Positions 1 to 42,962 of a stretch of 64,000 nucleotides of DNA are shown piece after piece. Location of the stretch: positions 96,001 through 160,000 of IMG/VR virus record IMGVR_UViG_3300029319_007985, one strand, 5' to 3'. This DNA is from a virus. The position numbers and the translations under genes are program-made. How positions within the stretch are numbered: position 1 is the stretch's first letter; each line of letters begins with the position of its first letter. The notes under the pieces are model-generated. The model worked only from the letters and a program-made list of their open reading frames with translations. It was not told where the DNA came from and searched no databases.

Positions 1-2
1 GT

Positions 3-485
3 CAAGGCTTCCATATCGAGACCATTGACAAGAATGAATTTACCGCAAGAGTGGCTACGATATTGATTGAAGAGAAGGTTGAGCAGGACATCGATACATT
101 AGACACTTATGTAAAAGCAACTTATCCAGATCTTAGAAAATGTATAAACATGGTGCAGATGAACACACGTGATGGCAAACTAGTCCCGCCAGCAAAAGGT
201 GACTCTCATCAGCAAGACTACAGATTAAAAATGGTCGAACTCTTCAAAGCAGGAAAAATTAATGAAGCAAGAAAACTGGTATGTGCCCAGGCAAGACCAG
301 AAGAGTGCGAAGAGATATACAGATGGTTGTATGATAATCTTGATATAATTTCAACGGACGAAGACTCTCAAGACAAAGCAATACTAATAATCAAACAAGG
401 ACTAGTTGATCATTCATTTGTTGCAGATCCAGAAATAAATCTAGCAAGTGTTATGATTAAACTGGCCAGACTGCAAAGTGCATGA
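3..485 (+). CDS. Clamp loader ATPase subunit (gp44/RFC small subunit-like), 5'-truncated by window
   Basis: Frame is open from base 3 (QGFHIETIDKNEFTARVATIL). It has sensor-2-like YPDLRKCINMVQ and a C-terminal ADPEINL collar motif. Confidence 0.8.
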   Translation, partial: QGFHIETIDKNEFTARVATILIEEKVEQDIDTLDTYVKATYPDLRKCINMVQMNTRDGKLVPPAKGDSHQQDYRLKMVELFKAGKINEARKLVCAQARPEECEEIYRWLYDNLDIISTDEDSQDKAILIIKQGLVDHSFVADPEINLASVMIKLARLQSA

Positions 486-3978: not shown

Positions 3979-4019
3979 GAACAATATTTAATTCATAATA
4001 TACGCCGATAAATATTATC

Positions 4020-4496: not shown

Positions 4497-4851
4497 AATT
4501 TTAGCAATATTATCTATACTTTTACTGACCGGTTGTAGCATCGGTGGGGAGAAAAAGATTAAGATATTCTCAGTTGAAAAGCCGAGAGAAAAATTAGACT
4601 ACCCTATGCCTACTCCTCTGCAGATGGAACAGATAAAATGGATCATAATAACAAGTGAAAATGCCGAAGAAGTATTCAAGAAACTTGAAGAGGCCGGAAT
4701 AGATCCTGTGCTGTTTGGCATCACTGACAAAGACTTCCAAGTGTTAGCAAGAAATTTCGCTCAGATTAGACAAAAATTACAAGAGACGAATAATCTATTG
4801 CAGGAATATAAAAAATACTATGAAGGAGAAAATGGCAACAAGAGTAATTGA
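4489..4851 (+). CDS. Putative outer-membrane spanin lipoprotein (Rz1-like)
   Basis: Signal peptide MNKILAILSILLLTG-C (lipobox) from ATG 4489, then a Pro-containing segment. Confidence 0.65.
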   Translation: MNKILAILSILLLTGCSIGGEKKIKIFSVEKPREKLDYPMPTPLQMEQIKWIIITSENAEEVFKKLEEAGIDPVLFGITDKDFQVLARNFAQIRQKLQETNNLLQEYKKYYEGENGNKSN

Positions 4852-5578
4852 TGATGTCATTTCTTCAAGCCAAAGACAACAAATCTGCAACTGGCTAGAC
4901 CAAAAAGACCAATATCTTGACGTTAGACCAGATGTCACCTCAAAGACGCCAAAGTTTGATGACAAAGACTGGCCACGGGCCACTATCAAAAATGCATTGG
5001 ACCATGTGCTAGACAAAGCATATAAAGTCGAAGAAGTAATATTTTTTAAGGCAAAGGGTGCGTTTAGATTACACGTGGACAGTGCCAACGGTGAAGACAA
5101 CCTTTACAAGGTCATAATATTTCCCTTAAAAATTTCAGGCCCATCATCTACTGTTATTTTTGACAACCACTGGTATGGTCCCAGCGGTAAGTTTAGCAAG
5201 AAAGAAATTCCACAATATGAGTATACATTGAACCTTGGAACAGAAAAAATATATATTCCCGATATGAGAGAATACAAAACCAATGATTCAAAAATTAGGG
5301 CATTGCTGGACGAACTTATAGAAAAAAGAAAAAAGGTAGACGGAAGACACTACGATTACAGTAAGATAAAAAACCTTAATAATAAACCATTCGATAAAAA
5401 TATACACAAAAAATACATGGATCACATTCCATATGAAAACCTTCACGGTCTCACTGTTGAAAAAATAGTGGATTGGCAGGAAGGTTCTGCCTTTACTTTT
5501 GACCGAACACAGATACACTGCGGCACCAACACCCATAATGAAAAGGTGTTTTGTACCGTGTTTACTTTTTTAGCATAG
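4820..5578 (+). CDS. 2OG-Fe(II) oxygenase-like (DSBH) protein
   Basis: HxD motif (LHVDS) and a distal His (FDRTQIHC). Confidence 0.55.
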   Translation: MKEKMATRVIDDVISSSQRQQICNWLDQKDQYLDVRPDVTSKTPKFDDKDWPRATIKNALDHVLDKAYKVEEVIFFKAKGAFRLHVDSANGEDNLYKVIIFPLKISGPSSTVIFDNHWYGPSGKFSKKEIPQYEYTLNLGTEKIYIPDMREYKTNDSKIRALLDELIEKRKKVDGRHYDYSKIKNLNNKPFDKNIHKKYMDHIPYENLHGLTVEKIVDWQEGSAFTFDRTQIHCGTNTHNEKVFCTVFTFLA

Positions 5579-15428: not shown

Positions 15429-16409
15429 TTGATGAACTTTTTAGAAATATCGCTGAAAACAGAACACACTTCTGTTCCTGCCCACCTAAAAATATATTGC
15501 AGTGATGAATTAGTATTTGATGATCTTATCGATAAAAATTTGGTTATAAAGAAACAATTTGAAACGCCAAAAGTATTCGAACTAAAAATAATCAAAACTG
15601 GAAAAAACATAGATTTAGTAAAAAAAGATCACATACAAAAAGTACAGATAGAAAAAGTAAGTGTAAATGGTATCAATTTGAAAATAAATGAATTTGGCAA
15701 CTTTCAAGTGCATGATAATCCTTACGTTGATGATCACACTCTACAAACAGTTGATTTGAATCTTAACGGCACGTGGACACTGCAACTACAGGAACAAAAG
15801 TTGATCGGACAATTTGAACCAGCAAAAGCAAAGTTCAGAGATGCCATACAAGACTGTGATATCGCATGTTTTGGTTGTAGTCAAACGTATGGAGTTTTTT
15901 TAGACCATAACGAAACTTGGCCATATTTTTTAGGCAAAGAACTAGGACTCAACGTGAAGAATTTTGGAATACCAGGATCAAACTACAATGAGATGACTGC
16001 ATTCATGGAATACTATGTAAAAAATTACAAAGCCAAAACAATTTTGGCGCTATTCCCACATTCGTTCAGAAGACAATCTATTGATAATGGAAAGATTGAA
16101 CACATAGGTGCTGTGGATGAACGCAACAAACATTTAATTTTCCACGGAGAAGAACATTCCATTGTGAATCTGTCGATGTGTTTTCCTGCCTGGCTAGAAA
16201 GTGTTCATGATAATATTATGGTCAGTACCTATCAACGCAGTGAACACAATTTAATGATGCTTACAAATATTAAAAAGCACATGCTACCATACTTTGATTC
16301 AGATCCTTACCCTAAAGCAAGTGATGGGAAGCATTTTGGTGTAGAACATAACCTAAGTTACGCAAAAGCACTTGCAAAGCACATCAATCAGCAAACTACA
16401 TTCCAATAA
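15429..16409 (+). CDS. SGNH/GDSL hydrolase-like protein with N-terminal beta domain
   Basis: FGCSQTYG (block I), NFGIPGS and DGKHFG (block V). Confidence 0.65.
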   Translation: MMNFLEISLKTEHTSVPAHLKIYCSDELVFDDLIDKNLVIKKQFETPKVFELKIIKTGKNIDLVKKDHIQKVQIEKVSVNGINLKINEFGNFQVHDNPYVDDHTLQTVDLNLNGTWTLQLQEQKLIGQFEPAKAKFRDAIQDCDIACFGCSQTYGVFLDHNETWPYFLGKELGLNVKNFGIPGSNYNEMTAFMEYYVKNYKAKTILALFPHSFRRQSIDNGKIEHIGAVDERNKHLIFHGEEHSIVNLSMCFPAWLESVHDNIMVSTYQRSEHNLMMLTNIKKHMLPYFDSDPYPKASDGKHFGVEHNLSYAKALAKHINQQTTFQ

Positions 16410-24656: not shown

Positions 24657-24937
24657 TGTATAATTTACTCAAAGAATTTTGGGTAAACAGTTATAACACA
24701 GATAAGACAGCATTTTATCTTGAGATTATATCTGTGGCATTTACCATTGCAGGATCAGTGATATTGACTTTCACTTCTCCTTATCCTATAATGGAGTATG
24801 TGTTTCCTGTCTATCTGGTAGGATCTTGCACACTGGCCATTGCATGTTGGAGAAGAAGAATAATTTGGACACTGGTTTTGGCAAGTTGGTTTACTATAAT
24901 GAATGTGATTGGAAACATTAAAGTATTTTTATTATGA
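24656..24937 (+). CDS. Small membrane protein (3 TM)
   Basis: Hydrophobic helices. Confidence 0.7.
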   Translation: MYNLLKEFWVNSYNTDKTAFYLEIISVAFTIAGSVILTFTSPYPIMEYVFPVYLVGSCTLAIACWRRRIIWTLVLASWFTIMNVIGNIKVFLL

Positions 24938-27594
24938 GTTATATAGATGCATTCTATAAAAGAGATGAGGACAAAGTCCGTGTAGTTGAAAGAGACTCCA
25001 AAGGACAAAGAAAGTTTGTAGACTACGACGCAAGATATACATTTTACTATCCTGACAGCAGAGGAAAACACAGAAGTATATTTGGAGAACAACTGCAAAA
25101 AGTACAATGCTCCACTTTCAAGCAATTTATAAAAGAACAAAAAATAAGATCAAATAAAAAATTATACGAACAAGATATAAATCCAGTCTTTAGGTGCCTG
25201 GAAGAAAATTATCTCGGTAAGGAAACTCCAAAATTAAATGTTGTATTTTTCGATATTGAAGTTGACTTCGACCCACAGCGTGGATATTCTACTACAGATG
25301 ATCCATTTATGCCAATAACAGCAATAACTTGTTATCTAAGTTGGAGCGATCAATTAGTAACACTTGCGGTTCCGCCAAAGACACTAAACATGTCAGGAGC
25401 AAAAATGGCGACAGAACGTTTTGAAAACGTCATGTTGTTTGAAAAAGAAGCGGACATGTTAGACGCATTTTTAACACTGATAGATGATGCGGACATTTTG
25501 AGTGGATGGAACTCGGAAGGTTATGATATTCCATACACTGTTGGTAGGATACAAAAAACATTGAGTAGCGACGACACAAGAAGACTATGCTTCTGGGGTG
25601 AAAAGCCAAAGCGTAGGACATTTGAGAAATATGGCAGAGAGCAACTAAGTTATGACCTGATAGGAAGAGTGCATTTGGATCTGCTAGAACTTTACAGAAA
25701 ATACACATATGAAGAAAGACATTCGTACAGACTAGATGCAATAGGTGAACACGAACTTGGCGAAAAAAAGACAGTGTATGAAGGATCTTTGGACAACCTA
25801 TATAATAATGACTTTGGTTTGTTTATAGAATACAATAGACAAGACTGTGCTCTACTTGCCAAACTGGAAAAAAAATTAAAATTTATTGAACTTGCAAACG
25901 AAATAGCACACCAAAATACCGTGTTATTACAGACTACGATGGGGGCAGTCGCAGTGACTGAACAAGCAATCGTGAATGAAGCACACAGAAGAGGCATGAT
26001 TGTGCCTGGAAGAGTCAAACGTGCCGAAGGAGAATCTGTCACGGCGGCTGGTGCATACGTGGCCACGCCCAAGAAAGGTTTACATAATTGGATAGGTAGT
26101 TGCGATATCAACAGTCTATATCCAAGTGTAATTAGAGCATTGAACATGGGACCAGAATCAATTGTTGGACAGATACGCCCTGTTATCACGTCTGCGGAAA
26201 TAAATCGTGCAAGGCACCAGAAAAAGTCATTTGCGGCGGCTTGGGATAATCAATTTGGCACTTGGGAATATCAAGCAGTAATGAAACAAGATAAAGGCAC
26301 TGAAATAATAGTTGACTGGGAAGATGGCACAAGTGTGAAAATGAGTGCAGGGCAACTACACGAACTTGTGTTTGAGAGTAATAATCAATGGATGTTGAGT
26401 GCAAACGGAACTATTTTCACGTATGAATTTGAAGCAATCATCCCTGGACTACTTAAAAGATGGTATGCTGAAAGAAAAGAAATGCAACGTAAGATGCATG
26501 AGTGCGGTGATAATGAAATAGAAAAAGAGTTTTGGGACAAAAGGCAACTAGTCAAAAAAATTAATTTAAACAGTTTGTATGGAGCAATCTTAAATCCAGG
26601 TTGCAGATTCTTCGACATAAGGATTGGACAGTCAGTAACACTAACTGGTAGATGTATCACAAAACACATGGGCGCAAAAGTAAATGAAGTAATAACTGGC
26701 GACTATGATCATAAAGGTGATTCAGTAATTTACGGCGACACAGATTCAGTTTACTTTAGTGCTTACAAACCGCTACAGAATGAAATAACGTCTGGAAAAG
26801 TGCCATGGCAAAAAGAAAACATAATAAATTTATATGATAAAATTGCTGACGAAGTCAATAACTCCTTTACACAATACATGACCAAAGCATTTCACTGTCC
26901 AAAAACTAGAGGCGAGGTAATAAAAGCAGGACGTGAATTAGTTGCTAGTAAAGGATTGTTTATTACAAAGAAAAGATATGCAGTGTTGTACTTCGACAAG
27001 GAGGGAGAACGTCAAGATATAGCCGGCTCGCCAGGAAAAATGAAGGCAATGGGACTTGATCTTAAAAGATCTGACACTCCTGTTTTTGTACAAAACTTTC
27101 TAAGTGAGTTGTTGATGATGGTTTTGACTAACAAAACTGAAGAAGAAGTCCTAAAAAGAATATCTGAATTTAGGTCAGAGTTCAAAGCAAGGCCAGGTTG
27201 GGAAAAAGGATCACCAAAAAGAGCAAACAACGTTACAGAATATCTTGCAAAAGAAACTAAACAAGGGAGAGCCAACATGCCAGGGCACGTAAGAGCAAGT
27301 ATAAACTGGAATAGATGTAGAGAAATGTACAGCGACAAATATTCTCTTCCTATAACGGATGGAGCAAAAGTGATTGTGTGTAAATTGAAAAACAATCCAT
27401 TAGGCTACACTTCAATAGCCTATCCAGTTGACGAGATGAGAATACCCGACTGGTTCAAAGAAATGCCATTTGATGCTGAAGCAATGGAATCTACAATACT
27501 AGATCAAAAAATAGACAATCTTATCGGGGTGCTTAATTGGGACGTACAAAGCACAGAGACCACAAACACATTCAACAAACTATTCCAATTTTAA
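24934..27594 (+). CDS. Family B DNA polymerase (gp43-like) with 3'-5' exonuclease
   Basis: FFDIEV, GWNSEGYDIPY, DINSLYPS, KINLNSLYG, YGDTDS and KKRYA motifs. Confidence 0.97.
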   Translation: MSYIDAFYKRDEDKVRVVERDSKGQRKFVDYDARYTFYYPDSRGKHRSIFGEQLQKVQCSTFKQFIKEQKIRSNKKLYEQDINPVFRCLEENYLGKETPKLNVVFFDIEVDFDPQRGYSTTDDPFMPITAITCYLSWSDQLVTLAVPPKTLNMSGAKMATERFENVMLFEKEADMLDAFLTLIDDADILSGWNSEGYDIPYTVGRIQKTLSSDDTRRLCFWGEKPKRRTFEKYGREQLSYDLIGRVHLDLLELYRKYTYEERHSYRLDAIGEHELGEKKTVYEGSLDNLYNNDFGLFIEYNRQDCALLAKLEKKLKFIELANEIAHQNTVLLQTTMGAVAVTEQAIVNEAHRRGMIVPGRVKRAEGESVTAAGAYVATPKKGLHNWIGSCDINSLYPSVIRALNMGPESIVGQIRPVITSAEINRARHQKKSFAAAWDNQFGTWEYQAVMKQDKGTEIIVDWEDGTSVKMSAGQLHELVFESNNQWMLSANGTIFTYEFEAIIPGLLKRWYAERKEMQRKMHECGDNEIEKEFWDKRQLVKKINLNSLYGAILNPGCRFFDIRIGQSVTLTGRCITKHMGAKVNEVITGDYDHKGDSVIYGDTDSVYFSAYKPLQNEITSGKVPWQKENIINLYDKIADEVNNSFTQYMTKAFHCPKTRGEVIKAGRELVASKGLFITKKRYAVLYFDKEGERQDIAGSPGKMKAMGLDLKRSDTPVFVQNFLSELLMMVLTNKTEEEVLKRISEFRSEFKARPGWEKGSPKRANNVTEYLAKETKQGRANMPGHVRASINWNRCREMYSDKYSLPITDGAKVIVCKLKNNPLGYTSIAYPVDEMRIPDWFKEMPFDAEAMESTILDQKIDNLIGVLNWDVQSTETTNTFNKLFQF

Positions 27595-27601
27595 ATACAA
27601 G

Positions 27602-28429
27602 ATGCTTAGTATAGAAGAGATAAAACTAACAATATCTGCTCTCAAAAAATTACGAGATACAAAAAATTGGGAAGATTGCATTGACAGTTACTTAAAAAAA
27701 TTAGAAGAACTGGCCAGACGTGTTGACGCATACAACGACGATCAAATCCAACAATTGGATAAGACAAAAGATTGGTATCAGCAAGAGTTAGATTGGACAC
27801 ATAATAGAAAAAAACACTTGTACGACGAGTTGCTTGACAAGATGATCGAATCAAAAATATTTCAGTTTGCGAAAGCAGGCAAAACAGCCAACATGCAAAA
27901 CTCTTTGGAAATAGGACCAGGGTATGGTAGGTACAGTAAAATGTTTTTGTCTTGGAGGCTGAACTATTTTCTAGACTTATTGCCAACATGTGAAACTAAA
28001 ATTAAGAAAAAATTTCACCCACCTCATCACAAATATATTAAATTTTATACGACACTACGTTGTGACTGTTCTCCAATACCAACCAACAGTTGTAATTTTG
28101 TTTTTTCCTGGAACACCTTTACTTTCTTTACACAAAAACACATCAATGAATACCTAGGAGACATGAAAAGGGTAATGTTACCAGGCGGATATGCTCTTAT
28201 ACATTATGCCAACTGTGAATATGATAAAGACTTGCACGAGGCAAAGCGTGGTTATTGGAACTTCAATACTAAAACAGACATGCACAAAATGATCCAATCA
28301 CATGGTTATGACATCATAGAAAGCGATCAATTTAAACAAGGCGCCAATTATGTTATCTTCAAAAAACTTGGTAATCTAAATCCTGTGCTTTATCAAGTTT
28401 TAGAAATGCCGCTAGATAAAGAAAAATAA
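27602..28429 (+). CDS. Class I SAM-dependent methyltransferase
   Basis: LEIGPGYGR motif I; FVFSWNTF; RVMLPGG. Confidence 0.8.
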   Translation: MLSIEEIKLTISALKKLRDTKNWEDCIDSYLKKLEELARRVDAYNDDQIQQLDKTKDWYQQELDWTHNRKKHLYDELLDKMIESKIFQFAKAGKTANMQNSLEIGPGYGRYSKMFLSWRLNYFLDLLPTCETKIKKKFHPPHHKYIKFYTTLRCDCSPIPTNSCNFVFSWNTFTFFTQKHINEYLGDMKRVMLPGGYALIHYANCEYDKDLHEAKRGYWNFNTKTDMHKMIQSHGYDIIESDQFKQGANYVIFKKLGNLNPVLYQVLEMPLDKEK

Positions 28430-28437
28430 TTTAACAG

Positions 28438-28466
28438 TTGATTCTGATCTAAATATTTTATATAAT
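28438..28466 (+). promoter_or_regulatory. Sigma70-like promoter upstream of clamp-dpdA
   Basis: TTGATT-N17-TATAAT; also contains TAAATA. Confidence 0.55.
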
Positions 28467-28475
28467 AATTGTATT

Positions 28476-29213
28476 ATGATAGATATCTTGAAAGACATTG
28501 TCAAGCACACGCATGGACTTGGATTCCTCGATCTTGTTAAAATTACTGGTACCAGTGATTCAACTGCTATTGATTCAATGGCAGAGGACAGATCAGTTAT
28601 CCTGCAAGGATCTTTTCACAAACCACAATCAGGTATGATAGGAACTTTTGGTATGCCTCAGTTGAATAAACTAGATATACATTTAAAATGTCCGGAATAC
28701 AAAGATAAGGCAAACATATCCGTAATGACTGGAACCAGAAATGGTGCAGAAACACCAACAGGTATACACTTTGAAAATGAAAAAGGTGATTTCAAGAATG
28801 ATTATAGATTTATGAATGCCGAGATTATTAACGAAAAACTTAAAACTGTAAAATTTAAAGGTGTTAAGTGGGACGTTGAGATCGAGCCTACAGTGGCAAG
28901 TGTACAAAGATTCAACTTTCAATCAGTAGCAAACACAGAACACAATTCTTTTGTTGTAAGAACAGAGGATGGTAACCTGATATTCACTTTTGGTGATCAA
29001 TCATCACATGGTGGTGAATTTGTATTTGCAAAAGACGTGAAAGGAACTCTTAATAAAGGATGGAGTTGGCCGGTAGCACAGGTATTACAGATATTGAAAC
29101 TTTCTGATTCTGCAAAAGTAACACTACATTTTTCCAATGAAGGAGCAATGCAGGTTACAGTAGACTCAGGACTAGGCAAATATCAGTATATTATTCCAGC
29201 GCAGGCGCAGTAA
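28476..29213 (+). CDS. Sliding clamp (gp45/PCNA-like)
   Basis: 245 aa, clamp-like alpha/beta pattern, C-terminal YQYIIPA, next to the polymerase. Confidence 0.65.
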   Translation: MIDILKDIVKHTHGLGFLDLVKITGTSDSTAIDSMAEDRSVILQGSFHKPQSGMIGTFGMPQLNKLDIHLKCPEYKDKANISVMTGTRNGAETPTGIHFENEKGDFKNDYRFMNAEIINEKLKTVKFKGVKWDVEIEPTVASVQRFNFQSVANTEHNSFVVRTEDGNLIFTFGDQSSHGGEFVFAKDVKGTLNKGWSWPVAQVLQILKLSDSAKVTLHFSNEGAMQVTVDSGLGKYQYIIPAQAQ

Positions 29214-30655
29214 TGACAGATAAAAGGCAAGAACATTTAGGAGAGTACAGCAGAGACTTTGCGGTGTTCTTGCCTGCTATTTCAAACTTTTACAATACTT
29301 TCATTAGCAAACAAAGGGTTACTGAGGGCACCCACATACCAGCAGAAAGAATACCAAAAGGATTGGACAGAGGAGTCGAAGGATTAAACTTTATCAATCC
29401 TGAACAAGGATATTTCACATATCCAACAGCATTATATTCGGCAGGACACGCCTGTTTAGATATGGATAAAACAGCAGACAGAGATTCAATGTGTGTCAAT
29501 CGAGACAGAAAGTTTTCAACGATTATTGGTGACTCAGGTGGATATCAGATAGGAAAAGGTGTTATTAAATTTGATTGGAAAGATTTTGAAGGAAATAAAG
29601 CAAACAAAGTAAGGTCAGATATTTTAAATTGGTTGGAACTTACAAGCGATTGGGCAATGACCTTAGACGTGCCAACTTGGGCGGCAGACGATTTGAATTC
29701 ACCAAAAACAGGACTAAAAAGTTTTCAAGATACATTGGACGGCACAATTTACAATAATAAGTTTTTCCAAAAAAATAGACTAGGACAGACCAAGTTATTA
29801 AACGTGTTACAAGGTGATGATTGGGAAACAGCACAAATTTGGTATGACAAAGTAAAAGATTTTGAATTTGAAGGTTGGGCAATGGGCGGAATCAACATGT
29901 GTGACATGGAGGTTATGTTAAAAAGGCTAATCATAATGAGAGATGAAAAGAAACTGGATGGTAAAGACTGGATGCACGTACTAGGCACGTCACAACTTGA
30001 TTGGGCATGTTTCTTAACACAGGTACAAAGACAGGTTCGAAAGAATATCAATGACAAATTTACTATTAGTTTTGATAGTGCGTCAGCATTTTTATCAACC
30101 GCAAATGGACTTGTGTACACGCACAACTTGTTTACTCCAAAAAGATGGAGTTACATAATGGAGAAGGCACCAGATGACAAGAGACTAAAAGGATCAACTA
30201 TTCCGTTTCCTTTCAAGTCAGCAATAGGAGAAAGACTAATACTTGGAGATGTTTGTGCTTATGGTGAAGGGGATCTAAACAAAAACAATAAAGAGGGCAA
30301 AACAAGTTGGGATAGTTTTAGTTACTGCTTGATGATGGCCCATAATGTTTACAACCATATAAGAGCGGTGCAAATTGCAAATGACTTGAATGACATTGAG
30401 ATGATCAAACATAAACCACAGGTAAAACACTGGAGAAAGACTAAGGATTCGGACAACACAGATGAACCAAGTGACTTTGTTCCACGAAATATTTTATATT
30501 TCAACACACTTGTGGAAGAAGTGTTCACAAGTGAAAAGCCAATGGATGTAATAAACAATGCCAGTAGTTTCCTTGCTGACATACGTGGCACTAGATGGGC
30601 AAGGGCCACAGGCGGTGGAAAAGGCAAAAACAACTTTAGCAGTCTATTCGAATAG
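29213..30655 (+). CDS. dpdA: TGT-fold 7-deazaguanine DNA transglycosylase (DpdA-like)
   Basis: DSGGYQ, MTLDVP, NVLQG, GWAMGG, HVLG, FDSAS and HNV motifs; no TGT Zn site; folE and queE nearby. Confidence 0.8.
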   Translation: MTDKRQEHLGEYSRDFAVFLPAISNFYNTFISKQRVTEGTHIPAERIPKGLDRGVEGLNFINPEQGYFTYPTALYSAGHACLDMDKTADRDSMCVNRDRKFSTIIGDSGGYQIGKGVIKFDWKDFEGNKANKVRSDILNWLELTSDWAMTLDVPTWAADDLNSPKTGLKSFQDTLDGTIYNNKFFQKNRLGQTKLLNVLQGDDWETAQIWYDKVKDFEFEGWAMGGINMCDMEVMLKRLIIMRDEKKLDGKDWMHVLGTSQLDWACFLTQVQRQVRKNINDKFTISFDSASAFLSTANGLVYTHNLFTPKRWSYIMEKAPDDKRLKGSTIPFPFKSAIGERLILGDVCAYGEGDLNKNNKEGKTSWDSFSYCLMMAHNVYNHIRAVQIANDLNDIEMIKHKPQVKHWRKTKDSDNTDEPSDFVPRNILYFNTLVEEVFTSEKPMDVINNASSFLADIRGTRWARATGGGKGKNNFSSLFE

Positions 30656-30912: not shown

Positions 30913-31458
30913 ATGTTAAGAGATTATTCTACAGGCTTCAAAGAAGATGTGAATGTTTTTTCAGGTATTGAAATAGAACACACTCCGGCATATGGTAAAC
31001 AAACACTTTTCCTTGCACGTAACGATCTTACTTTTGATCAAATACAAAGTTTGGCCGTGGCCGCTGATGCAGAAGCAATATACTATGGAGCAAATAGGTC
31101 CTATATGCACAGTCACGCGATGCAGTTGGCTCAAATACATCAATTGTTAGACAGAGGATACTGGGTAACTGTTGATTACCCATTTGAATTACATCAATTG
31201 GTTGCCAAGAAGTTTAGCACGTGCTGGAGAAAGGAAAGATTTATTCCATTCTGCTCTATCATATTTCCACACACAGAAGAAGATGACAATTTGTGTTTCA
31301 AAGTAGACGATGTAGATTTTAACAAAACAAATCCTGGTGTTTGGAGCATGACTATGAAAGATTTCAAAGACAAAGCAGGATTTACTAAATGGGAAGAATA
31401 CAAACAAGATGAACCAATAACAGAGGACAAAATATGGCCAGCACCACAGAAAGCGTAA
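30913..31458 (+). CDS. Hypothetical protein in the deazaguanine cluster
   Basis: 181 aa ORF overlapping the dpdL-like gene. Confidence 0.75.
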   Translation: MLRDYSTGFKEDVNVFSGIEIEHTPAYGKQTLFLARNDLTFDQIQSLAVAADAEAIYYGANRSYMHSHAMQLAQIHQLLDRGYWVTVDYPFELHQLVAKKFSTCWRKERFIPFCSIIFPHTEEDDNLCFKVDDVDFNKTNPGVWSMTMKDFKDKAGFTKWEEYKQDEPITEDKIWPAPQKA

Positions 31459-31898
31459 TTGATCAGATGTATAACATACCTGAGCAACAACAAGAACAAG
31501 CATTGAAAGAAAAAGCCGGAAAGGCGGCAAAAATGATATGGGTGACCTTTCAAAAAGAAGGTATGCACAAATACCCTGCGGCACTAGATGATCCAAAATT
31601 AAAGACAGGAGATGAGTACGATGTTAGTTTCTTAGGATATCCACACAGACACATATTTCATTTCAAAGTGGCAATAGAAGTATTCCACGATGACAGAGAC
31701 ATTGAATTTATACAGTTTAAAAGATGGCTCCTTAATTTGTACAAGGACGGCACTATACAAAGCGACTTTAAAAGTTGTGAAATGATGAGTGATGACCTAT
31801 ACATTGCAATCACAAAAAAATATCCAGGTAGACGCATAGAAATAGATGTATCAGAAGATGGTGAAAACGGATCACACGCAGTATATGAAAGAACTTAA
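31434..31898 (+). CDS. QueD-paralogous T-fold protein, DpdL-like
   Basis: LGYPHRHIF matches LxxxHRHxF instead of QueD CxxxHGH; SCEM and VSEDGENG T-fold motifs. Confidence 0.65.
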   Translation: MASTTESVIDQMYNIPEQQQEQALKEKAGKAAKMIWVTFQKEGMHKYPAALDDPKLKTGDEYDVSFLGYPHRHIFHFKVAIEVFHDDRDIEFIQFKRWLLNLYKDGTIQSDFKSCEMMSDDLYIAITKKYPGRRIEIDVSEDGENGSHAVYERT

Positions 31899-32559: not shown

Positions 32560-33708
32560 ATGTCAAAAAGACTCCTAGATAAAAACTTTTGTGTTATACC
32601 ATGGACAGGCTTTGAATTAGAGCCTAATGGGCATGTAAGGAACTGTATTATCAGTAAGGACAAAATAGGCAATATCTACAGAAACAACATCCAAGATATT
32701 TTACAAAGTAATACAAAAATAAAAGAAGAAATGCTGAATGGAAAATATCCTTCTAGTTGTGATGGATGTTTTCTACAAGAAAAACACAGGGCAAAAGATT
32801 TTGAATCGATTAGCAGTCGTTTGTATTATGCGAAAGAGATAGGACCGTCTATATCAACAACACTATTTGATAGCAAAAACAATTTTGATTTGAAACACGT
32901 TGATCTACGTTGGTCCAATGCGTGTAACCAAGCATGTGTTTACTGTCATCCTGACTACAGTAGCAAATGGGCCACTGAACTTAATAAAAAAATTCCACAT
33001 GATCAAGAACAAATCCAGCAGGTAAAAGAATATGTTTTTAAAAATGTAAAAAATTTAAAAAACGTTTACCTAGCAGGAGGTGAGCCAATGTTAATGAAAC
33101 CTAATCAAGAGTTTCTTGAACTTCTTTATAAAGAAAATCCAAACGTAAACTTAAGGATCAACACCAACCTCAGCAAAACAAATACTAGAATTTTTGAACA
33201 ATTGTGTAAGTTTGAAAACGTGCATTGGACCGTTAGTATAGAAACTATAGAAGAAGAATATGAATATGTCAGGTATCATGGAGACTGGACAGCATTTTTA
33301 GAAAATTTGAAAGTGATAAAAAAATTACCACATAAAATAAGTTTCAATATGCTTTACTTCATTTTGAATTACAGAAGTCTCTTTGGTTGCGTAAATTACC
33401 TACAGAATTTAGGATTTCATAACAACAGTTTTGTGATTGGTCCATTGTTTACTCCGCCGCATTTGAATATTTTGAATTTACCTAAACAAATTTTAAACCA
33501 ACTTAGAGAATTACTCAAAGAGAAAATTAATGAAAAACCAGGCTTCCTACTTGAAAACAGTTACCAAAATCTACTTCAATATTTGACTGAAACCAAGTTC
33601 TATGCTAATATAGATGTAACAAAGAGAGAATTAGAAAAAATGGATAGAAGAAGAAATTTGGACAGCAAAAAAGTGTTTCCTAAACTGTATCAAGAGGTGC
33701 TTAATTAA
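32560..33708 (+). CDS. Radical SAM protein with N-terminal SPASM/twitch-like Cys cluster
   Basis: CNQACVYC, AGGEP and N-terminal FCVIPW...NC...CDGC motifs. Confidence 0.88.
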   Translation: MSKRLLDKNFCVIPWTGFELEPNGHVRNCIISKDKIGNIYRNNIQDILQSNTKIKEEMLNGKYPSSCDGCFLQEKHRAKDFESISSRLYYAKEIGPSISTTLFDSKNNFDLKHVDLRWSNACNQACVYCHPDYSSKWATELNKKIPHDQEQIQQVKEYVFKNVKNLKNVYLAGGEPMLMKPNQEFLELLYKENPNVNLRINTNLSKTNTRIFEQLCKFENVHWTVSIETIEEEYEYVRYHGDWTAFLENLKVIKKLPHKISFNMLYFILNYRSLFGCVNYLQNLGFHNNSFVIGPLFTPPHLNILNLPKQILNQLRELLKEKINEKPGFLLENSYQNLLQYLTETKFYANIDVTKRELEKMDRRRNLDSKKVFPKLYQEVLN

Positions 33709-34874
33709 TGAAAATATTCTACATGGGCCTTGAACCATACGAAGGCCGATATACTCTGCAGTTGACAGATTGGACTGAACGTGCTTTTAAAAAAGCAGGC
33801 GTAGAATATGTGATAGTGCCTGGCACAACAATAGATGATAGTAAAGCAATAGTTACAGGACAAGTTTTAGATGCACATGGTAGAAGTTATTTTGGAATGA
33901 GCCAAATGATGAATTTGGTTCAAATGATGAAAGCAGGAGAAGTCACGTCCAAGGACATAATATTTTTTGAAGACATGTTTCAGCCTGGAATGGAGGCTCT
34001 GCCTTATATACTTCAGCAAAGTCCAGAAAAATATAGACCTGCAATATACCTAAGATGTTTAGCACAATCAATTGACCCAGATGATTTTGTGCATGTATGG
34101 GGTATGAGCAAATGGATGAGTCTCTATGAAGAGATGTGCAACGAGATTCCAAATGTCAATATACTTGCCAGTAACGAAGAGATGGTTGCCAATATGAGAA
34201 TAGCCAATTGGAAGGCACCTATATACAATATTTCAGGACTAAGTTTTGGAAAAGAAGAAGTGCAATCAAGAGTAGAACAAAAACCATTCATTGAAAGGAA
34301 ACAAAGAGTCGTATTTGGAGCAAGATGGGATCAAGAAAAACAGCCACAATTTTTTATGGACTTGGTGCAGGCATATAAAAAGAAACATCCAGACACAGAA
34401 TTTGCAATATGTTCAGGTGGTCCATTAAGGTCCAATAACAAATACTATGTTGATGAAGCAAGATACCTTGCTAAAGAAGGCATACTAACAATACATGAAA
34501 ACTTGAAAAAAGATGAGTACTATAGCATACTTGCTGACTCAAGAGTTTTATTCAATTGCGCTTTACAGGATTGGACTTCTAACACAGTGAGTGAAGCGGA
34601 TGCCTTAGGCGCGAATGTATTGTTTCCGGCATACAGGTCTTTCCCGGAAGTTTTTGCAAATGACGAAACAAGAATGTACATACCATGGTCACAAAAGGAC
34701 GCAATTAAAAAACTAGAAACACTAATGAGCAAACCATCCCCTAGTATGGGTCAAATATCAGATTGGACAGATGGCACAATCGATAGAATGTTAGACATCA
34801 TGACAGGCAAGGGCGAACAATGGAGAAGAGATGGATCACACTACAGAACACCAGTATCCGAAAAAAAATATTAA
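33708..34874 (+). CDS. GT-B (family 4-like) glycosyltransferase
   Basis: RWDQEKQP, LQDWTSNTVSEADALG and PAYRSFPE donor-binding motifs. Confidence 0.8.
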   Translation: MKIFYMGLEPYEGRYTLQLTDWTERAFKKAGVEYVIVPGTTIDDSKAIVTGQVLDAHGRSYFGMSQMMNLVQMMKAGEVTSKDIIFFEDMFQPGMEALPYILQQSPEKYRPAIYLRCLAQSIDPDDFVHVWGMSKWMSLYEEMCNEIPNVNILASNEEMVANMRIANWKAPIYNISGLSFGKEEVQSRVEQKPFIERKQRVVFGARWDQEKQPQFFMDLVQAYKKKHPDTEFAICSGGPLRSNNKYYVDEARYLAKEGILTIHENLKKDEYYSILADSRVLFNCALQDWTSNTVSEADALGANVLFPAYRSFPEVFANDETRMYIPWSQKDAIKKLETLMSKPSPSMGQISDWTDGTIDRMLDIMTGKGEQWRRDGSHYRTPVSEKKY

Positions 34875-35868
34875 CAACATAAACAAAGCAGTTCTTGTTG
34901 TTGGTGGAGCAGGTTATATTGGATCACATATTAGCAAACATCTTGCAAAAAATGGATATACCCCGGTCATACTCGACAGAAATGTAAAAGATAATTTTAT
35001 CTCACAAAAATTTAGTGATGTGTATGAAATCAATTTGCCCAGAGACATACATCTGCTTGACGATATTATCAAAAGATACAATATAGATTGCTGTATACAT
35101 ACGGCGGCGTACACGTCCGTAGGCAAATCCGTAAAACAGCCTGATTCATATTATCAAAACAATGTTGTAATGACTCTACAACTTTTAAACAAACTGAAAG
35201 AATTAGATGTAAAAAAGTTTATCTTTAGTTCAAGTGCCGCAGTTTATGGAGTGCCCAAGGATGGTGTGTGTTTTGACACTGAAAAAAACTTGGATCCAAT
35301 CAATCCTTACGGAACAACAAAATTAATCGTTGAGAAAATGCTGAGAGAATACAATACTGCTTATGGTATATCAAGCATTAGTTTTAGATACTTCAATGCC
35401 GCCGGCGCTGATAGGGATGGAGACATTGGAGAAATGCATGATCCAGAAACGCACATTATTCCAATTATAATCAAGGCAGGATTTCAGGCGAAAGAATTCA
35501 ACATGTTTGGCACTGACCATGATACACCAGATGGAACCTGCGTCAGAGATTATATCCATGTTGATGACATCGCAGAAGCACACATAAAAGCAATGGCATT
35601 ACTCGACAGCAATATTTGTGAAGCAATAAATCTAGGATCCGGGACAGGCTTCAGCAATAAACAAATTGTAGATGAAGTGGCAAAGCACACAGGGGCAATA
35701 AAAGTCATTGATGCTCCGAGACGTGCTGGAGATCCACCACAACTTATTGCAGATATAACAAGATCAAAGGAACTATTAAATTGGAAACCAATTCACAGTA
35801 GCATTGACAACGTGGTTCGAACTGCTGTACAATGGTATAAGACTATCAATAAAAAGGAAATAAACTAA
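34831..35868 (+). CDS. galE: UDP-glucose 4-epimerase
   Basis: GGAGYIGSH, FSSSAAVYG, PYGTTK, RYFNAAGA and DGTCVRDYIHV motifs. Confidence 0.92.
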   Translation: MDHTTEHQYPKKNINNINKAVLVVGGAGYIGSHISKHLAKNGYTPVILDRNVKDNFISQKFSDVYEINLPRDIHLLDDIIKRYNIDCCIHTAAYTSVGKSVKQPDSYYQNNVVMTLQLLNKLKELDVKKFIFSSSAAVYGVPKDGVCFDTEKNLDPINPYGTTKLIVEKMLREYNTAYGISSISFRYFNAAGADRDGDIGEMHDPETHIIPIIIKAGFQAKEFNMFGTDHDTPDGTCVRDYIHVDDIAEAHIKAMALLDSNICEAINLGSGTGFSNKQIVDEVAKHTGAIKVIDAPRRAGDPPQLIADITRSKELLNWKPIHSSIDNVVRTAVQWYKTINKKEIN

Positions 35869-36578
35869 TGGACGAATTAAAAGACAGTTGGGCACCAGTA
35901 GGACCGGTAAGCGAAAAAATCAAAAAAAGAATAAAAGAAGCAAAAGCAAGATATCATGCCAATGACAATATTTCCGAATTTATAAAAGAAGGCGAACTTG
36001 AACAACTGCAAAATGAGGTCCAAGACAAAATGAAATCATTGCTGAGCAGTCTTGTTATTGACACTGAAAATGATCATAACACACAAGACACTGCAAAACG
36101 TGTTGCCAAGATGTGGATAAAGGAAGTATTCGGGGGAAGATATAATCCATTCCCGAGAGTTACAAGTTTTCCAAACATGGGATACAAAAGCATGTACACC
36201 TCTGGACCAATATCTATTCGGTCAACATGTGCCCACCACTTCCAAAATATTGTTGGAAATGCTTGGATAGGGATTATTCCAAACGGTGAGGTAATTGGTT
36301 TGAGTAAGTTCAATAGAATAGTGCACCATATAGCAGAACGTCCACAGATTCAAGAAGAAATGACAACTCAGATTGCAGAGGCACTCCAAGAGTATGCACA
36401 TACAAAAAACATAGCGGTGGTTGTAAAAGCAGAACATCACTGTATGACACACAGAGGCGTGAGAGAGCATGAAAGCGACATGACAACAGCAATAATGTTA
36501 GGCGCTTTCAAAGAAGACCCTGCAACCAGAGATGAATTTTACAAGATTTGCATGAGCATGAAAGGTCATGGTGGATAA
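35868..36578 (+). CDS. folE: GTP cyclohydrolase I
   Basis: TAKRVAKMW, STCAHHF, IGLSKFNR, PQIQEE and HHCMTHRGV motifs. Confidence 0.95.
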   Translation: MDELKDSWAPVGPVSEKIKKRIKEAKARYHANDNISEFIKEGELEQLQNEVQDKMKSLLSSLVIDTENDHNTQDTAKRVAKMWIKEVFGGRYNPFPRVTSFPNMGYKSMYTSGPISIRSTCAHHFQNIVGNAWIGIIPNGEVIGLSKFNRIVHHIAERPQIQEEMTTQIAEALQEYAHTKNIAVVVKAEHHCMTHRGVREHESDMTTAIMLGAFKEDPATRDEFYKICMSMKGHGG

Positions 36579-36789
36579 AAAAACAAAAGAAAATTGGGAA
36601 ACTTTTGAAAGTTGGATTCCAAGTGACTCATACATGTATGGTGGTATGACAGAATCGGTTACGGTACAAGGTGAACTATTTGATCCAGACCAAGAACTTA
36701 AAGAAAAATATCCAGCATTGAAGAAAGCCTGGAAACAATATCAAATTATAAAAAAATTATGTGAGGCAAAAGAAAATGAGACTAGATAG
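36568..36789 (+). CDS. Hypothetical protein
   Basis: 73 aa ORF; EKYPALKKAW. Confidence 0.65.
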   Translation: MVDKKTKENWETFESWIPSDSYMYGGMTESVTVQGELFDPDQELKEKYPALKKAWKQYQIIKKLCEAKENETR

Positions 36790-37825
36790 TGAACCTAAAC
36801 TTAATTTTGAAGACGTGTTGTTGAAACCTAAACGTTCTACTCTTTCAAGCAGGAAGGATGTAGATATGACAAGAAAATTTACTTTTAGAAATTCAGGAAA
36901 GGTTATGGACTTCCTTCCTATTTTTGCAAGTAACATGGATGGTGTAGGTACTTTTAGCATGGCTAAAGAAATGCAAAAACACAAAATGATGACGGTAATA
37001 ACAAAGACAACAACAACTGAACAATGGAAAGAAGCAGTGGGTACTGGTTTAAGATTACAAAGTGTGTCAGTATGCACAGGCACAAACAAAATGTTTGATA
37101 AAGAAGCGTCCGATTACAGAAACATGCAAGAGGTACTCAAAATGTTTCCTGATGTAAAGATGATTACCATAGACGTGGCAAACGCATATCATCAAAATTT
37201 TGTTGACTTTACAAAAATGGTCAGAGAGGAATATCCAGAAAAAGTAATTGTTGCCGGAAACGTTGTCACTCCAGAAATGGTCGAGGAGTTAATTATTAAT
37301 GGAGCAGACGTAGTAAAAATTGGAATAGGACCTGGATCTGTTTGCACGACTAGAACAATGACAGGGGTAGGGGTTCCACAATTCAGTGCTATCGTGGAGT
37401 GTTCAGATGCCGCAAACGGAGTTGGTGGTCATATCATGGCAGACGGTGGTTGTGTTTATCCAGGAGACATAGCAAAAGCATTTGGCGGAGGCGCTCATAT
37501 GGTAATGATCGGAGGAATGTTAGCAGGTCATGATGAATCTGAACAACCAGTGGTAGATGGTAAGATAGAATTTTATGGAATGAGTTCAGACCGTGCAAGA
37601 GAAGTCCATGGAAAAAGGAAAGATGGATATAGAGGAAATGAAGGTAGGTTAATAAGTTTACCATACAGAGGACCTGTCAACAACACATTAGAAGATATTC
37701 TGGGTGGAGTTAGAAGTGCCTGTACATATATAGGTGCAAGAAGATTAAAAGATATGGCAAAATGTGCAAGTTTTGTTCAAACTAACAATGTGATTAACAA
37801 AGTTTATGAGCAGTACACCAAATAA
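36776..37825 (+). CDS. guaC: GMP reductase
   Basis: LNFEDVLLKPKRSTL.SR, SNMDGVGTF, GIGPGSVCTTR and FYGMSS motifs. Confidence 0.93.
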   Translation: MRLDSEPKLNFEDVLLKPKRSTLSSRKDVDMTRKFTFRNSGKVMDFLPIFASNMDGVGTFSMAKEMQKHKMMTVITKTTTTEQWKEAVGTGLRLQSVSVCTGTNKMFDKEASDYRNMQEVLKMFPDVKMITIDVANAYHQNFVDFTKMVREEYPEKVIVAGNVVTPEMVEELIINGADVVKIGIGPGSVCTTRTMTGVGVPQFSAIVECSDAANGVGGHIMADGGCVYPGDIAKAFGGGAHMVMIGGMLAGHDESEQPVVDGKIEFYGMSSDRAREVHGKRKDGYRGNEGRLISLPYRGPVNNTLEDILGGVRSACTYIGARRLKDMAKCASFVQTNNVINKVYEQYTK

Positions 37826-38267
37826 AAGTTATTTCTCAAATTTACAGATGCGAAACGCATTAGTGCAGATCGAAGATCAAATGGTGCACTCCAATTGGAT
37901 GCCTGACCTAATAATGGGCATAAATCGAGGTGGATGCATTCCTGGTGTTTATCTCAGCCATAGACTAAAGAAAGAACACTTGGTATTAGATATCAGATTA
38001 CGAGATCATAAAGCGACTCCGGATCTGTCAGTGTTAACAAAGCAGTACGCTTTCCAAAGAAAAATTTTGATCATAGATGACATCAATGATACCGGTGCCA
38101 CTTTCAAATACATAGAAGAGAATTTTGGTAGACCTGACAGAGTTAAATTTGCCGCATTAATTAATAACCAACCAAGCGAAGTAACAGTTGATTACCATGG
38201 ATACCAAATAGATAAATCAAAAGATCCTGCCTGGATTGTTTTTCCATGGGAAGAGTGGCAAAAGTAA
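37806..38267 (+). CDS. Type I phosphoribosyltransferase (xanthine/guanine PRTase-like)
   Basis: GINRGG, LIIDDINDTGAT and WIVFPWE motifs. Confidence 0.85.
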   Translation: MSSTPNKSYFSNLQMRNALVQIEDQMVHSNWMPDLIMGINRGGCIPGVYLSHRLKKEHLVLDIRLRDHKATPDLSVLTKQYAFQRKILIIDDINDTGATFKYIEENFGRPDRVKFAALINNQPSEVTVDYHGYQIDKSKDPAWIVFPWEEWQK

Positions 38268-38280
38268 ACTAAAGAGTGTA

Positions 38281-38309
38281 TAGACACTTATCCATTATTA
38301 TTGTATAAT
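38281..38309 (+). promoter_or_regulatory. Sigma70-like promoter for the NCS2 permease
   Basis: TAGACA-N17-TATAAT, then AAGGAG SD. Confidence 0.65.
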
Positions 38310-38335
38310 TTTTAGATGTTAACAAAGGAGATAAC

Positions 38336-39625
38336 ATGTTAGAAAAACTCTTTGGTTTGACAAAAGCCGGGACTTCAGTGAAAACTGAAATCATGGCCGG
38401 AGTCGCCACTTTCCTAACAATGGCTTATATCACGGTAGTAAATCCTGCAATCTTAAGTACTGAAGGTTCGGGAATGGATTTTGGCGCTGTATTCACAGCG
38501 ACAATTATTGCCGCTGTAATAGGAACATTGATAATGGGACTATGGGCCAATTGGCCGATAGCACTTGCACCAGGTATGGGACTAAATGCGTTCTTTACAT
38601 TTGGTGTAATATTTGGAATGGGTTATACATTTTCTCAGGCCTTGGCCGCTGTATTTGTGGCAGGGGTAGTGTTTATCGTTTTGTCGGTGACACCAGCGAG
38701 AAAATATATTATCAACTCTATTCCAAAAAGTATGAAACTAGGCGTTGGAGCCGGTATAGGATTATTCCTTGCCATCATAGGTTTTAAGAACGCTGGTATT
38801 GTAGTGGATCATCCTGCTACATTAGTTGGACTTGGTGATATTTCAAGTTGGCCTGTTTTATTAGCAGGCGCAGGTTTTGCCACAATGGCAATACTTGATA
38901 GAAGAAAGATCCCAGGTGCAATAATAATTGGAATCTTAGCAGTCTCAGTGATTGCTTGGGTCTTTGGTATATCTGATCTAAAAGGTGTAGCCGGTGCTAT
39001 TCCAAGTCCTGCACATGCGTTCAGTTTAGACTTTAGTCTAATTGCTACTGCAGGTTTCATTGGTACTGCGTTTGCATTCTTGTTTGTGGACTTTATGGAC
39101 ACAGCAGGAACTTTGACTTCAGTTGCTAACCTTACTGGTAAAGTAAACAAAAGCGGCGAAGTGGAAGGCATTGACAGAGCATTGCTATCTGATTCGGTAG
39201 CAACAACTGTTGGAGCACTTGCAGGTACTTCTAACACTACTTCTTACATAGAAAGTGGTGCTGGAGTAAAAGAAGGCGGTAGAACAGGTTTGACAGCGGT
39301 AACAGTGGCGGTGCTATTTTTAGCCTGCTTATTCTTTGCCCCGCTGGCACAGAGTATACCTAAGTTCGCCACTGCACCAGCACTTATATTCATTGCAACC
39401 TACTTCTTGAGAAACCTCAAGGACATCGATTGGGATGATGTGAGTGAGTATGCACCTGCCGTATTAGCGGCGGTGATCATGCCATTAACTTTCAGTATTG
39501 CCTATGGTATTGCGATAGGTTTTATTGCTTATGTTGTAATCAAAGCATTAAGCGGTAAACAATCACAATTGAACAAAGGTAGTATTGCAATAGCGGCAGT
39601 AAGTTTAGTTTACTTCGCTGTATAA
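38336..39625 (+). CDS. NCS2/AzgA-family purine (guanine/hypoxanthine/adenine) permease
   Basis: EIMAGVATFLTMAYI, APGMGLNAFF, DFMDTAGT and YIESGAGV.EGGRTG motifs; many TMs. Confidence 0.93.
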   Translation: MLEKLFGLTKAGTSVKTEIMAGVATFLTMAYITVVNPAILSTEGSGMDFGAVFTATIIAAVIGTLIMGLWANWPIALAPGMGLNAFFTFGVIFGMGYTFSQALAAVFVAGVVFIVLSVTPARKYIINSIPKSMKLGVGAGIGLFLAIIGFKNAGIVVDHPATLVGLGDISSWPVLLAGAGFATMAILDRRKIPGAIIIGILAVSVIAWVFGISDLKGVAGAIPSPAHAFSLDFSLIATAGFIGTAFAFLFVDFMDTAGTLTSVANLTGKVNKSGEVEGIDRALLSDSVATTVGALAGTSNTTSYIESGAGVKEGGRTGLTAVTVAVLFLACLFFAPLAQSIPKFATAPALIFIATYFLRNLKDIDWDDVSEYAPAVLAAVIMPLTFSIAYGIAIGFIAYVVIKALSGKQSQLNKGSIAIAAVSLVYFAV

Positions 39626-42074: not shown

Positions 42075-42962
42075 ATGGACAAACTAAGATATTCGGAAAT
42101 ATTTTATAGTGTGCAAGGAGAAGGGCGTTTTGTTGGTGTGCCCAGTGTGTTCTTTAGGGTGTTTGGCTGTAACTTCAACTGCCATGGTTTTGGACAAGGC
42201 AGAGATGAATCAAAGTGGTTAAAGCCGGAAGAGATGCCATACATGACACAAGACTTGTCACACGTGAATCATGTGAGAGATTTGCCTGTGGTGGAGATAG
42301 GTTGTGATGCAAGTGCCAGTTGGAGTTCGAGATACAAACACTTGGTTGCTTGGGAATCGATCGACGACATCGCGAAAAAAATTACTGCGTACACGCCGAA
42401 CAAAAAATGGACAAATGACAACGGCACAGACATACACTTTATCATCACTGGCGGTGAGCCAATGTTGTGGCAAAGAGAAACGCAGATACTTCTAAGACAA
42501 AAAGAATTCAACAGTTTAAAAAACTTGACTATAGAAACAAACTGCACACAACCGTTCAAAGCAGGTTTCGATAAATTTTTACAAGGACTAGTAGCAGGAG
42601 ATTATACCAAAGAACCAGTACACATCACTTGGTCAACTTCGCCAAAATTATCAATATCGGGAGAAGACTGGGATAAAGCAATAAAGCCTGAGGTTGCCAA
42701 ACAATATTTTGATATACCCAACAGTCATTTGTATTTCAAGTTCGTAGTCCAGGATGAACAGGATCTAGCAGAGGTTGATAAGGCACGAGAAGAGTATAGC
42801 AAAGCAGGAGTTGATGCAGACATCTACTTAATGGCTGTAGGAGCAACTCAAGAAGGGCAGGCAAAAACAGCAAAGCAGGTGGCAGATGTGGCAATGAAGA
42901 ATGGATACAAGTATTCTCCAAGACTGCATGTTGATTTATTTGGTAATAAGTGGGGCACATAA
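42075..42962 (+). CDS. queE: 7-carboxy-7-deazaguanine synthase (radical SAM)
   Basis: EIFYSVQGEG, RVFGCNFNC...CD, ITGGEP, IETN, SPKL and SPRLH motifs. Confidence 0.88.
   Translation: MDKLRYSEIFYSVQGEGRFVGVPSVFFRVFGCNFNCHGFGQGRDESKWLKPEEMPYMTQDLSHVNHVRDLPVVEIGCDASASWSSRYKHLVAWESIDDIAKKITAYTPNKKWTNDNGTDIHFIITGGEPMLWQRETQILLRQKEFNSLKNLTIETNCTQPFKAGFDKFLQGLVAGDYTKEPVHITWSTSPKLSISGEDWDKAIKPEVAKQYFDIPNSHLYFKFVVQDEQDLAEVDKAREEYSKAGVDADIYLMAVGATQEGQAKTAKQVADVAMKNGYKYSPRLHVDLFGNKWGT

Follow-up and report, generated by a model that had tools for sequence, protein, structure and literature searches.

In phages T4 and RB69, clients of the sliding clamp gp45 (gp43, gp33, gp55 and ligase) carry short hydrophobic peptides of the LDFLF type on flexible segments, and T4 ligase is a precedent for an internal clamp motif (PMC6212786). 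T4 alpha-glucosyltransferase, a post-replicative modifier of phage DNA, also binds gp45 (Sommer 2004, cited and confirmed in PMC13216743). Transglycosylases of the DpdA type, including DpdA2 of Vibrio phages nt-1 and VH7D as well as DpdA1, DpdA3 and DpdA4, have a tRNA-guanine transglycosylase (TGT) barrel, a DSGG motif and catalytic aspartates, and in DpdA phages they are clustered with FolE, QueD and QueE (PMC6884629, PMC10516641). A review lists a deazaguanine synthesis and incorporation system (Motura, PA5oct) and a PCNA-type clamp for the jumbo-phage group, and in its accessible text no link between transglycosylase and clamp is drawn (PMC7824862). Here we describe a window of 64,000 nucleotides (positions 96,001 to 160,000 of the viral record IMGVR_UViG_3300029319_007985), in which open reading frame (ORF) 29213, a predicted DpdA-like transglycosylase, adjoins ORF 28476, a predicted sliding clamp, and ends in a peptide resembling that of the DNA polymerase. 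We think it probable that the enzyme docks on the phage clamp through this polymerase-mimicking peptide, so that base exchange is coupled to replication.

The central features are listed below. Positions are those of the window; the prefix G000 marks contig coordinates. Models were made with AlphaFold2 (AF2), whose per-residue confidence is given as pLDDT.

24934..27594, + strand: family B DNA polymerase, 886 aa (PF00136, E 3e-37; phrog_262, E 1e-195)
27562..27594, + strand: C-terminal peptide of the polymerase, residues 877-886, TNTFNKLFQF, a putative clamp-binding motif by sequence
28476..29213, + strand: PCNA-fold sliding clamp, 245 aa, two domains, presumably a trimer (AF2 pLDDT 94; Foldseek; structural alignment)
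29213..30655, + strand: TGT-fold DpdA-like guanine transglycosylase, 480 aa, without zinc knuckle (AF2 pLDDT 93; Foldseek)
30593..30625, + strand: disordered Gly/Lys linker of the transglycosylase, residues 461-471 (pLDDT < 50 over 461-478)
30626..30655, + strand: polymerase-like peptide of the transglycosylase, residues 472-480, with the end KNNFSSLFE, a candidate clamp-binding motif

The source contig is viral, from a large uncultured phage, and 172 kb long, with 218 called genes and an estimated completeness of 47%. In a tblastn search of 50,697 phage records, PA5oct and Paride (40% identity) proved the nearest cultured relatives, together with Vibrio phage 2.275.O and Sinorhizobium phage Phosso; by these comparisons the phage is a jumbo relative of the PA5oct/Paride type, outside the T4-like group sensu stricto. 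The order polymerase, clamp, enzyme is conserved from marine relatives through Paride and Vibrio phage 2.275.O, and PA5oct, whose homologue is 40% identical, shares this order. The stop codon of the clamp gene overlaps the start of the transglycosylase gene (TAATG at 29211-29215). Phosso is arranged differently (L083:7968-9617, L084:3001-6039): its enzyme gene, which immediately precedes those for primase and helicase, is ~175 kb away from polymerase and clamp, and the protein still has a hydrophobic-x-x-L-F end. Seven phage contigs with the polymerase-clamp-enzyme block (L495, L501, L506, L507, L510, L513, L517) are binned into bacterial or archaeal assemblies, probably as contamination.

Both the polymerase and the transglycosylase contain N-x-F-x-x-L-F, a pattern that occurs, at any position in the protein, in only these two of the 218 called genes. 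Across 62 distinct variants of the polymerase tail, hydrophobic-x-x-L-F is maintained. When a matrix derived from polymerase tails alone was applied, the enzyme tail scored 16.7 bits, the top value among C-terminal non-polymerase matches and second overall, after an internal match in an 850-aa protein. Residues 461-478 of the enzyme model lie outside the well-predicted core, and linker length and sequence vary among homologues. The preliminary description of this DNA had reported the two similar ends, the linker beyond the barrel and the overlapping stop and start codons, and all three are borne out. It is unlikely that the enzyme end was recently copied from the polymerase at the DNA level, since by eye the 39-base ends differ at many sites, including synonymous ones.

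The peptide might instead serve the enzyme itself, through packing on the barrel or dimerization, or bind another partner (helicase, single-stranded DNA-binding protein, DpdL or the synthesis enzymes), in which case its likeness to the polymerase tail would be a coincidence. AF2, given a 95-sequence alignment, leaves the peptide unpacked from the barrel, and homologues in bacterial islands, described below, manage without it. The pattern does, however, suit a short amphipathic helix, one chance instance is known from this genome, and TGTs are dimers (PMC6884629). We regard a coincidence as quite improbable. Chance alone yields a loose F-x-x-L-F end in about one of 200 genes (one further gene among the contig genes). 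The gene at G000 15652-16143, which has such an end, was considered as a clamp client and rejected, because its end looks like that of an amphipathic helix and the Leu is mostly Thr in homologues.

The first 80 relatives are 80-90% identical, and thus too similar to inform on conservation. Among 59 homologues with 37-85% identity, F475 is kept in 37, L478 in 45 and F479 in 52, while the linker is variable, and the motif is retained in homologues down to ~35-50% identity, Paride included. Its persistence across lineages at 35-60% identity suggests that it is under selection. Of 147 enzyme homologues, 73% exceed 8 bits on the polymerase-only matrix within their final 60 residues, compared with 0% in each of nine other neighbouring gene families, and a matrix scan found the motif absent from the tails of the glycosyltransferase, 5'-3' exonuclease, methyltransferase, FolE, QueE, GalE and DpdL. 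The predicted conservation in DpdA-like homologues is thus observed. Its supposed position at the extreme C-terminus holds for the clade of the window phage; in most relatives the motif is internal and is followed by 30-40 acidic residues. In L086, L102, L137, L164 and most other relatives with 45-62% identity, this acidic tail ends in a short amphipathic segment. This tail, lost in the window clade, may mimic DNA or serve as a second site of docking. Jumbo phages of Xanthomonas and P. putida have remote homologues (L405:7578-9284, L406:7857-9227) with Lys/Arg-rich tails instead, perhaps for direct DNA tethering; a family B polymerase was not detected in either genome.

Odd variants of the enzyme peptide follow the polymerase tail of their own genome, which speaks against coincidence. 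Such polymerase/enzyme pairs include NNTDLFDW/NNNDLFGW in Vibrio phage 2.275.O, KAMKLFNY/KAKSLFEF in L413 and FGKFF/FTKFF in L241. Co-variation was assessed by comparing cognate with shuffled polymerase-enzyme pairs, with no motif chosen in the enzyme and no tree-based correction. Permutation p values were 0.001-0.006 at 85% clustering (n ~43), 0.001-0.075 at 75% and 0.02-0.07 at 60% (n 11-13), which suggests modest co-variation of the two peptides.

No function for ORF 28476 or ORF 29213 emerged when their sequences were searched against PDB, Pfam, PHROGs, NCBIfam and PADLOC, and both were identified by predicted fold only. The model of ORF 28476 matches yeast PCNA over its full length (Foldseek E 3e-12; template modelling (TM) score 0.70). 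In structural alignments, it resembles PCNA (VIA) with Z 18.1 (root-mean-square deviation (rmsd) 4.0, 229 residues aligned) and T4 gp45 with Z 15.8 (rmsd 3.4, 212 residues aligned). These models assign to ORF 28476 the two-domain PCNA/gp45 clamp fold that the preliminary description had claimed, and three copies modelled together reach a pLDDT of 91. A homologue search with the clamp returned near-identical matches only. In L089, L090 and L245, the clamps are 27-30% identical to that of the window and the polymerase 56%, and the peptides are altered in both polymerase and enzyme. A loader gene begins upstream of the window:

1..485, + strand: clamp-loader large subunit, 3' part (phrog_168, E 1e-78; whole gene G000 95559-96485)

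Thus, to judge from sequence matches, the genome encodes its own AAA+ clamp loader for this clamp.

The arrangement resembles that of the gp45 clients, in which a short hydrophobic peptide on a flexible segment is likewise common to the replicative polymerase and other proteins, and a cognate clamp of PCNA/gp45 fold is served by an RFC-type loader. Unlike those clients, the window proteins have the consensus N-x-F-x-x-L-F rather than LDFLF, the clamp is ~11% identical to gp45, and the client is a base-exchange enzyme whose clamp binding is a prediction. Like T4 alpha-glucosyltransferase, the window enzyme would be a clamp-associated, post-replicative modifier of phage DNA. The T4 protein differs in fold and chemistry (sugar transfer to hydroxymethylcytosine), and a polymerase-like tail is not named in the accessible text of PMC13216743.

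The clamp in three copies was also modelled together with enzyme residues 449-480, and the interface score ipSAE was compared with those of three controls. This complex scored 0.48 against 0.01 for the best control, with a contact agreement of at least 41% and a partner pLDDT of at least 43 among runs. Of 80 solved complexes, 58 reach the mark set for ipSAE, as do 2 of 110 mismatched pairs, and scores that reach it without exceeding 0.60 belong to only 7 of the 80 solved complexes and to both mismatches. The result counts as weak support, and the score may reflect memory of solved clamp-peptide structures. It shifts the odds of clamp docking a little, and a score in this range would also suit a coincidental peptide. 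The earlier proposal that the enzyme rides the phage clamp is consistent with the clamp fold, the conserved motif and the modest co-variation, and draws weakly on the complex model; neither of the two findings that could have overturned it, on motif conservation and clamp fold, did so.

All of the best 50 PDB matches to the ORF 29213 model are TGTs (top E 3e-8, TM 0.40/0.50, Foldseek). Residues D107, D152, Q200, G226-G227 and D288 align with active-site motifs of five bacterial TGTs, and D107, D152 and D288 are invariant across 95 homologues. In the Zymomonas mobilis enzyme, we take the catalytic and guanine-binding residues to be D102, D156, Q203, G230 and D280. Identity as a canonical Tgt was rejected because the CxCxxC zinc site is present in none of the 95 homologues and a Pfam search gave no match to PF01702. 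ORF 29213 shares the DSGG motif of phage DpdA enzymes. Among named viral models, the Motura transglycosylase comes closest in structure, together with an nt-1 protein of 464 aa, as long as nt-1 DpdA2; structural identity between this nt-1 protein and ORF 29213 is ~13%. The family profile matches nt-1 DpdA2 (YP_008125322) with a probability of 94% (E 9e-8) and phiST DpdA3 (CGPG_00065) with 71%, the latter over 83 columns only. A hidden Markov model (HMM) search of the nt-1, CP220 and phiST genomes detected neither DpdA2 nor DpdA3 (nt-1: E <= 1), and membership in DpdA3, which includes the Campylobacter phage enzymes, was rejected for lack of an HMM match in phiST or CP220 and because the profile match is short. 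Phages with DpdA1 or DpdA4 (9g DpdA, HVTV1_69) were not returned by the tblastn search, and no direct comparison with them was made. From fold and sequence, ORF 29213 is predicted to work like DpdA, as the preliminary description had it. Its nearest characterized subfamily is DpdA2, and membership in a described subfamily is not established. The family comprises 971 clusters at 50% identity, lacks annotation in Pfam, in PHROGs, in NCBIfam and in PADLOC, and has Paride, PA5oct, Vibrio phage 2.275.O and Phosso as cultured carriers.

ORF 29213 might act on tRNA or another non-DNA substrate, its place beside the clamp gene reflecting co-expression only: its closest solved structures are tRNA-guanine transglycosylases, and none of the DpdA sequence models detects it. 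We consider this highly improbable, because the zinc site is missing throughout the homologues, nt-1 DpdA2 is the nearer among characterized viral enzymes, and the adjacent DpdL is known from DNA-modifying phages. In addition, five bacterial hosts that carry island copies also encode a canonical TGT of their own.

Genes for the synthesis of 7-deazaguanine lie downstream of the enzyme:

31434..31898, + strand: DpdL-like T-fold protein, predicted 7-carboxy-7-deazaguanine (CDG) decarboxylase (LxxxHRHxF signature; 32% identity to phiST CGPG_00067, E 4e-15)
35868..36578, + strand: FolE, GTP cyclohydrolase I (PF01227, E 5e-49)
42075..42962, + strand: QueE-like radical S-adenosylmethionine (SAM) enzyme (QueE models on the N-terminus, E 2e-11, below the curated cut-off)

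The LxxxHRHxF motif was defined as the DpdL signature (PMC10516641) and occurs in 129 of 131 DpdL-like homologues; the DpdL homologue is found in nearly all relatives, Paride included. The Paride counterpart of the QueE-like gene is annotated as QueE-like, and QueD is encoded elsewhere on the contig. QueC was not found in this 47%-complete contig, nor in Paride or a relative that is 99% complete, and one incomplete relative gave partial matches. FolE, QueD, QueE and DpdL without QueC is the gene set tied to 7-deazaguanine in the Cellulophaga phage phiST (PMC10516641), whose 2'-deoxy-7-deazaguanosine (dDG) pathway, with DpdA3, replaces G completely. The window phage has these four genes in common with phiST, and differs in its 480-aa transglycosylase, remote from the 259-aa DpdA3, and in a glycosyltransferase and GalE within the block. 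Because DpdL is present and QueC was not found, 7-deazaguanine is predicted in the DNA of this phage group, and the inserted base is probably 7-deazaguanine itself. The homologue in Vibrio phage 2.275.O is adjoined by QueF and queuosine genes.

Other genes of the region have less evident roles. The GT4-like glycosyltransferase and GalE (33708-35868), of which the transferase is retained in Paride, could glycosylate the modified base as a further step or have an unrelated target. Downstream of folE, genes for GMP reductase, a phosphoribosyltransferase and a purine permease (36761-39625) possibly recycle guanine freed by base exchange. An unannotated 181-aa gene (30913-31458) adjoins the enzyme in most relatives and has no family match. 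One more gene lies between polymerase and clamp:

27602..28429, + strand: class I SAM methyltransferase-like gene (PF08241, E 4e-6)

Its presence is variable, in that some close relatives lack it, and a matrix scan found no clamp motif in it.

A second branch of the enzyme family is found in bacterial islands, beside integrases and with no polymerase nearby. These enzymes end shortly past the core, without the motif. At 60% clustering, the score on the polymerase matrix is above 0 for 13 of 16 clamp-adjacent phage enzymes compared with 1 of 27 island enzymes. In 63 island loci, an unannotated partner of 520-600 aa (two related families; ~560 aa) adjoins the enzyme. Examples, each with enzyme and partner and linked to an integrase, are:

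L407:8232-11251
L409:8341-11371
L443:3202-6170 (partner at 3202-4893)

A 120-column alignment matches the C-terminal part of the partner with the phage clamp's second domain (E 2.6e-4, probability 42%), in one comparison that was the best of seven families tried, and the clamp-like sequence is suggestive only. The partner had no match in PDB, Pfam, PADLOC or two Atlas searches, which gave no evidence against a clamp fold. One island, L411, also carries genes for QueC and QueD and one of the radical SAM type. Island enzyme and partner are a candidate for an undescribed DNA-modification or defence module.

If the peptide docks the enzyme on the clamp, the phage replisome would load its own PCNA-like clamp with its own loader, and the polymerase would dock through its C-terminal peptide, as RB69 and T4 suggest. 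The DpdA-like enzyme would bind by its matching peptide, on the flexible linker, to the outer hydrophobic pocket that the polymerase uses, whether in an unoccupied subunit of the ring or in clamps that remain behind the fork. There it would excise guanine from new phage DNA and insert a 7-deazaguanine base, made by FolE, QueD, QueE and DpdL, by the TGT mechanism. Tethering would increase processivity as well as local concentration, and the DNA might thus be modified ahead of host restriction enzymes.

Several points weigh against clamp docking. The motif is short, and F-x-x-L-F can arise by chance from amphipathic helices. At 50% clustering the advantage of cognate over shuffled pairs is not significant (p 0.10-0.27, n 7-9 lineages), and a control with core segments was nominally significant in 2 of 25 draws. 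The contrast between phage and island enzymes amounts roughly to one between two clades, and its p values overstate independence. L251 and its kin carry polymerase and clamp, yet their enzyme has no clear motif, and DpdA2 of nt-1 has no polymerase-like tail, although nt-1 is T4-like. DNA modification of Paride, PA5oct or the window phage is undocumented in the literature searched, which did not extend to subscription papers. Finally, the clamp binding of T4 alpha-glucosyltransferase is real and is not the main determinant of T4 modification: the enzyme co-purifies with gp45, yet its expression level accounts for its share of glucosylation (PMC13216743). Characterized DpdA2 enzymes modify plasmid DNA in E. 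coli, where no phage clamp is present (PMC10516641).

These last two cases also favour the view that the tail binds the clamp with little effect on modification, the enzyme modifying any DNA and the tether merely localizing it or fine-tuning its timing. This view overlaps with our preferred reading on binding and differs on function. It seems to us rather unlikely, given that motif retention at 35-60% identity implies selection and that a dedicated partner, clamp-like in sequence, is kept by most island relatives without the tail. A stronger claim of the preliminary description was that tethering restricts the enzyme to phage DNA, giving discrimination between self and non-self with respect to host DNA. 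The phage clamp would be present only at forks served by the phage loader, and the co-variation suggests a phage-specific match of tail and clamp. Such discrimination would nevertheless require an enzyme almost inactive off the clamp, and relatives are active alone, as the plasmid modification by DpdA2 illustrates; no nuclease cutting unmodified DNA was identified, though no systematic search was made. We find this claim unsupported, and discrimination unlikely.

The preliminary description also knew of no such coupling. This stands for DpdA, in that our literature searches returned no paper that connects a DpdA-type enzyme with a clamp; it does not stand for phage DNA modifiers at large, given the gp45 binding of T4 alpha-glucosyltransferase (PMC13216743). 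What is new is a DpdA-type enzyme with a predicted clamp tether, whereas clamp-bound T4 DNA modifiers were known and the PA5oct deazaguanine system was already listed.

The island loci raise the broader, more tentative possibility, which we think somewhat doubtful, that the whole transglycosylase family is clamp-dependent, with jumbo phages borrowing the replicative clamp through the polymerase-mimicking peptide and island enzymes, having shed that peptide, using their own clamp-fold partner. Most or all guanines would then be replaced processively by 7-deazaguanine after replication, and only where that clamp is loaded. If true, clamp dependence would explain near-complete base replacement by a post-replicative enzyme. 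Trials of DpdA3 and DpdL in E. coli yielded no product (PMC10516641), and a clamp tether suggests a cofactor that may have been missing from those tests. It would offer a concrete mechanism by which DpdA enzymes find DNA and replace guanine completely.

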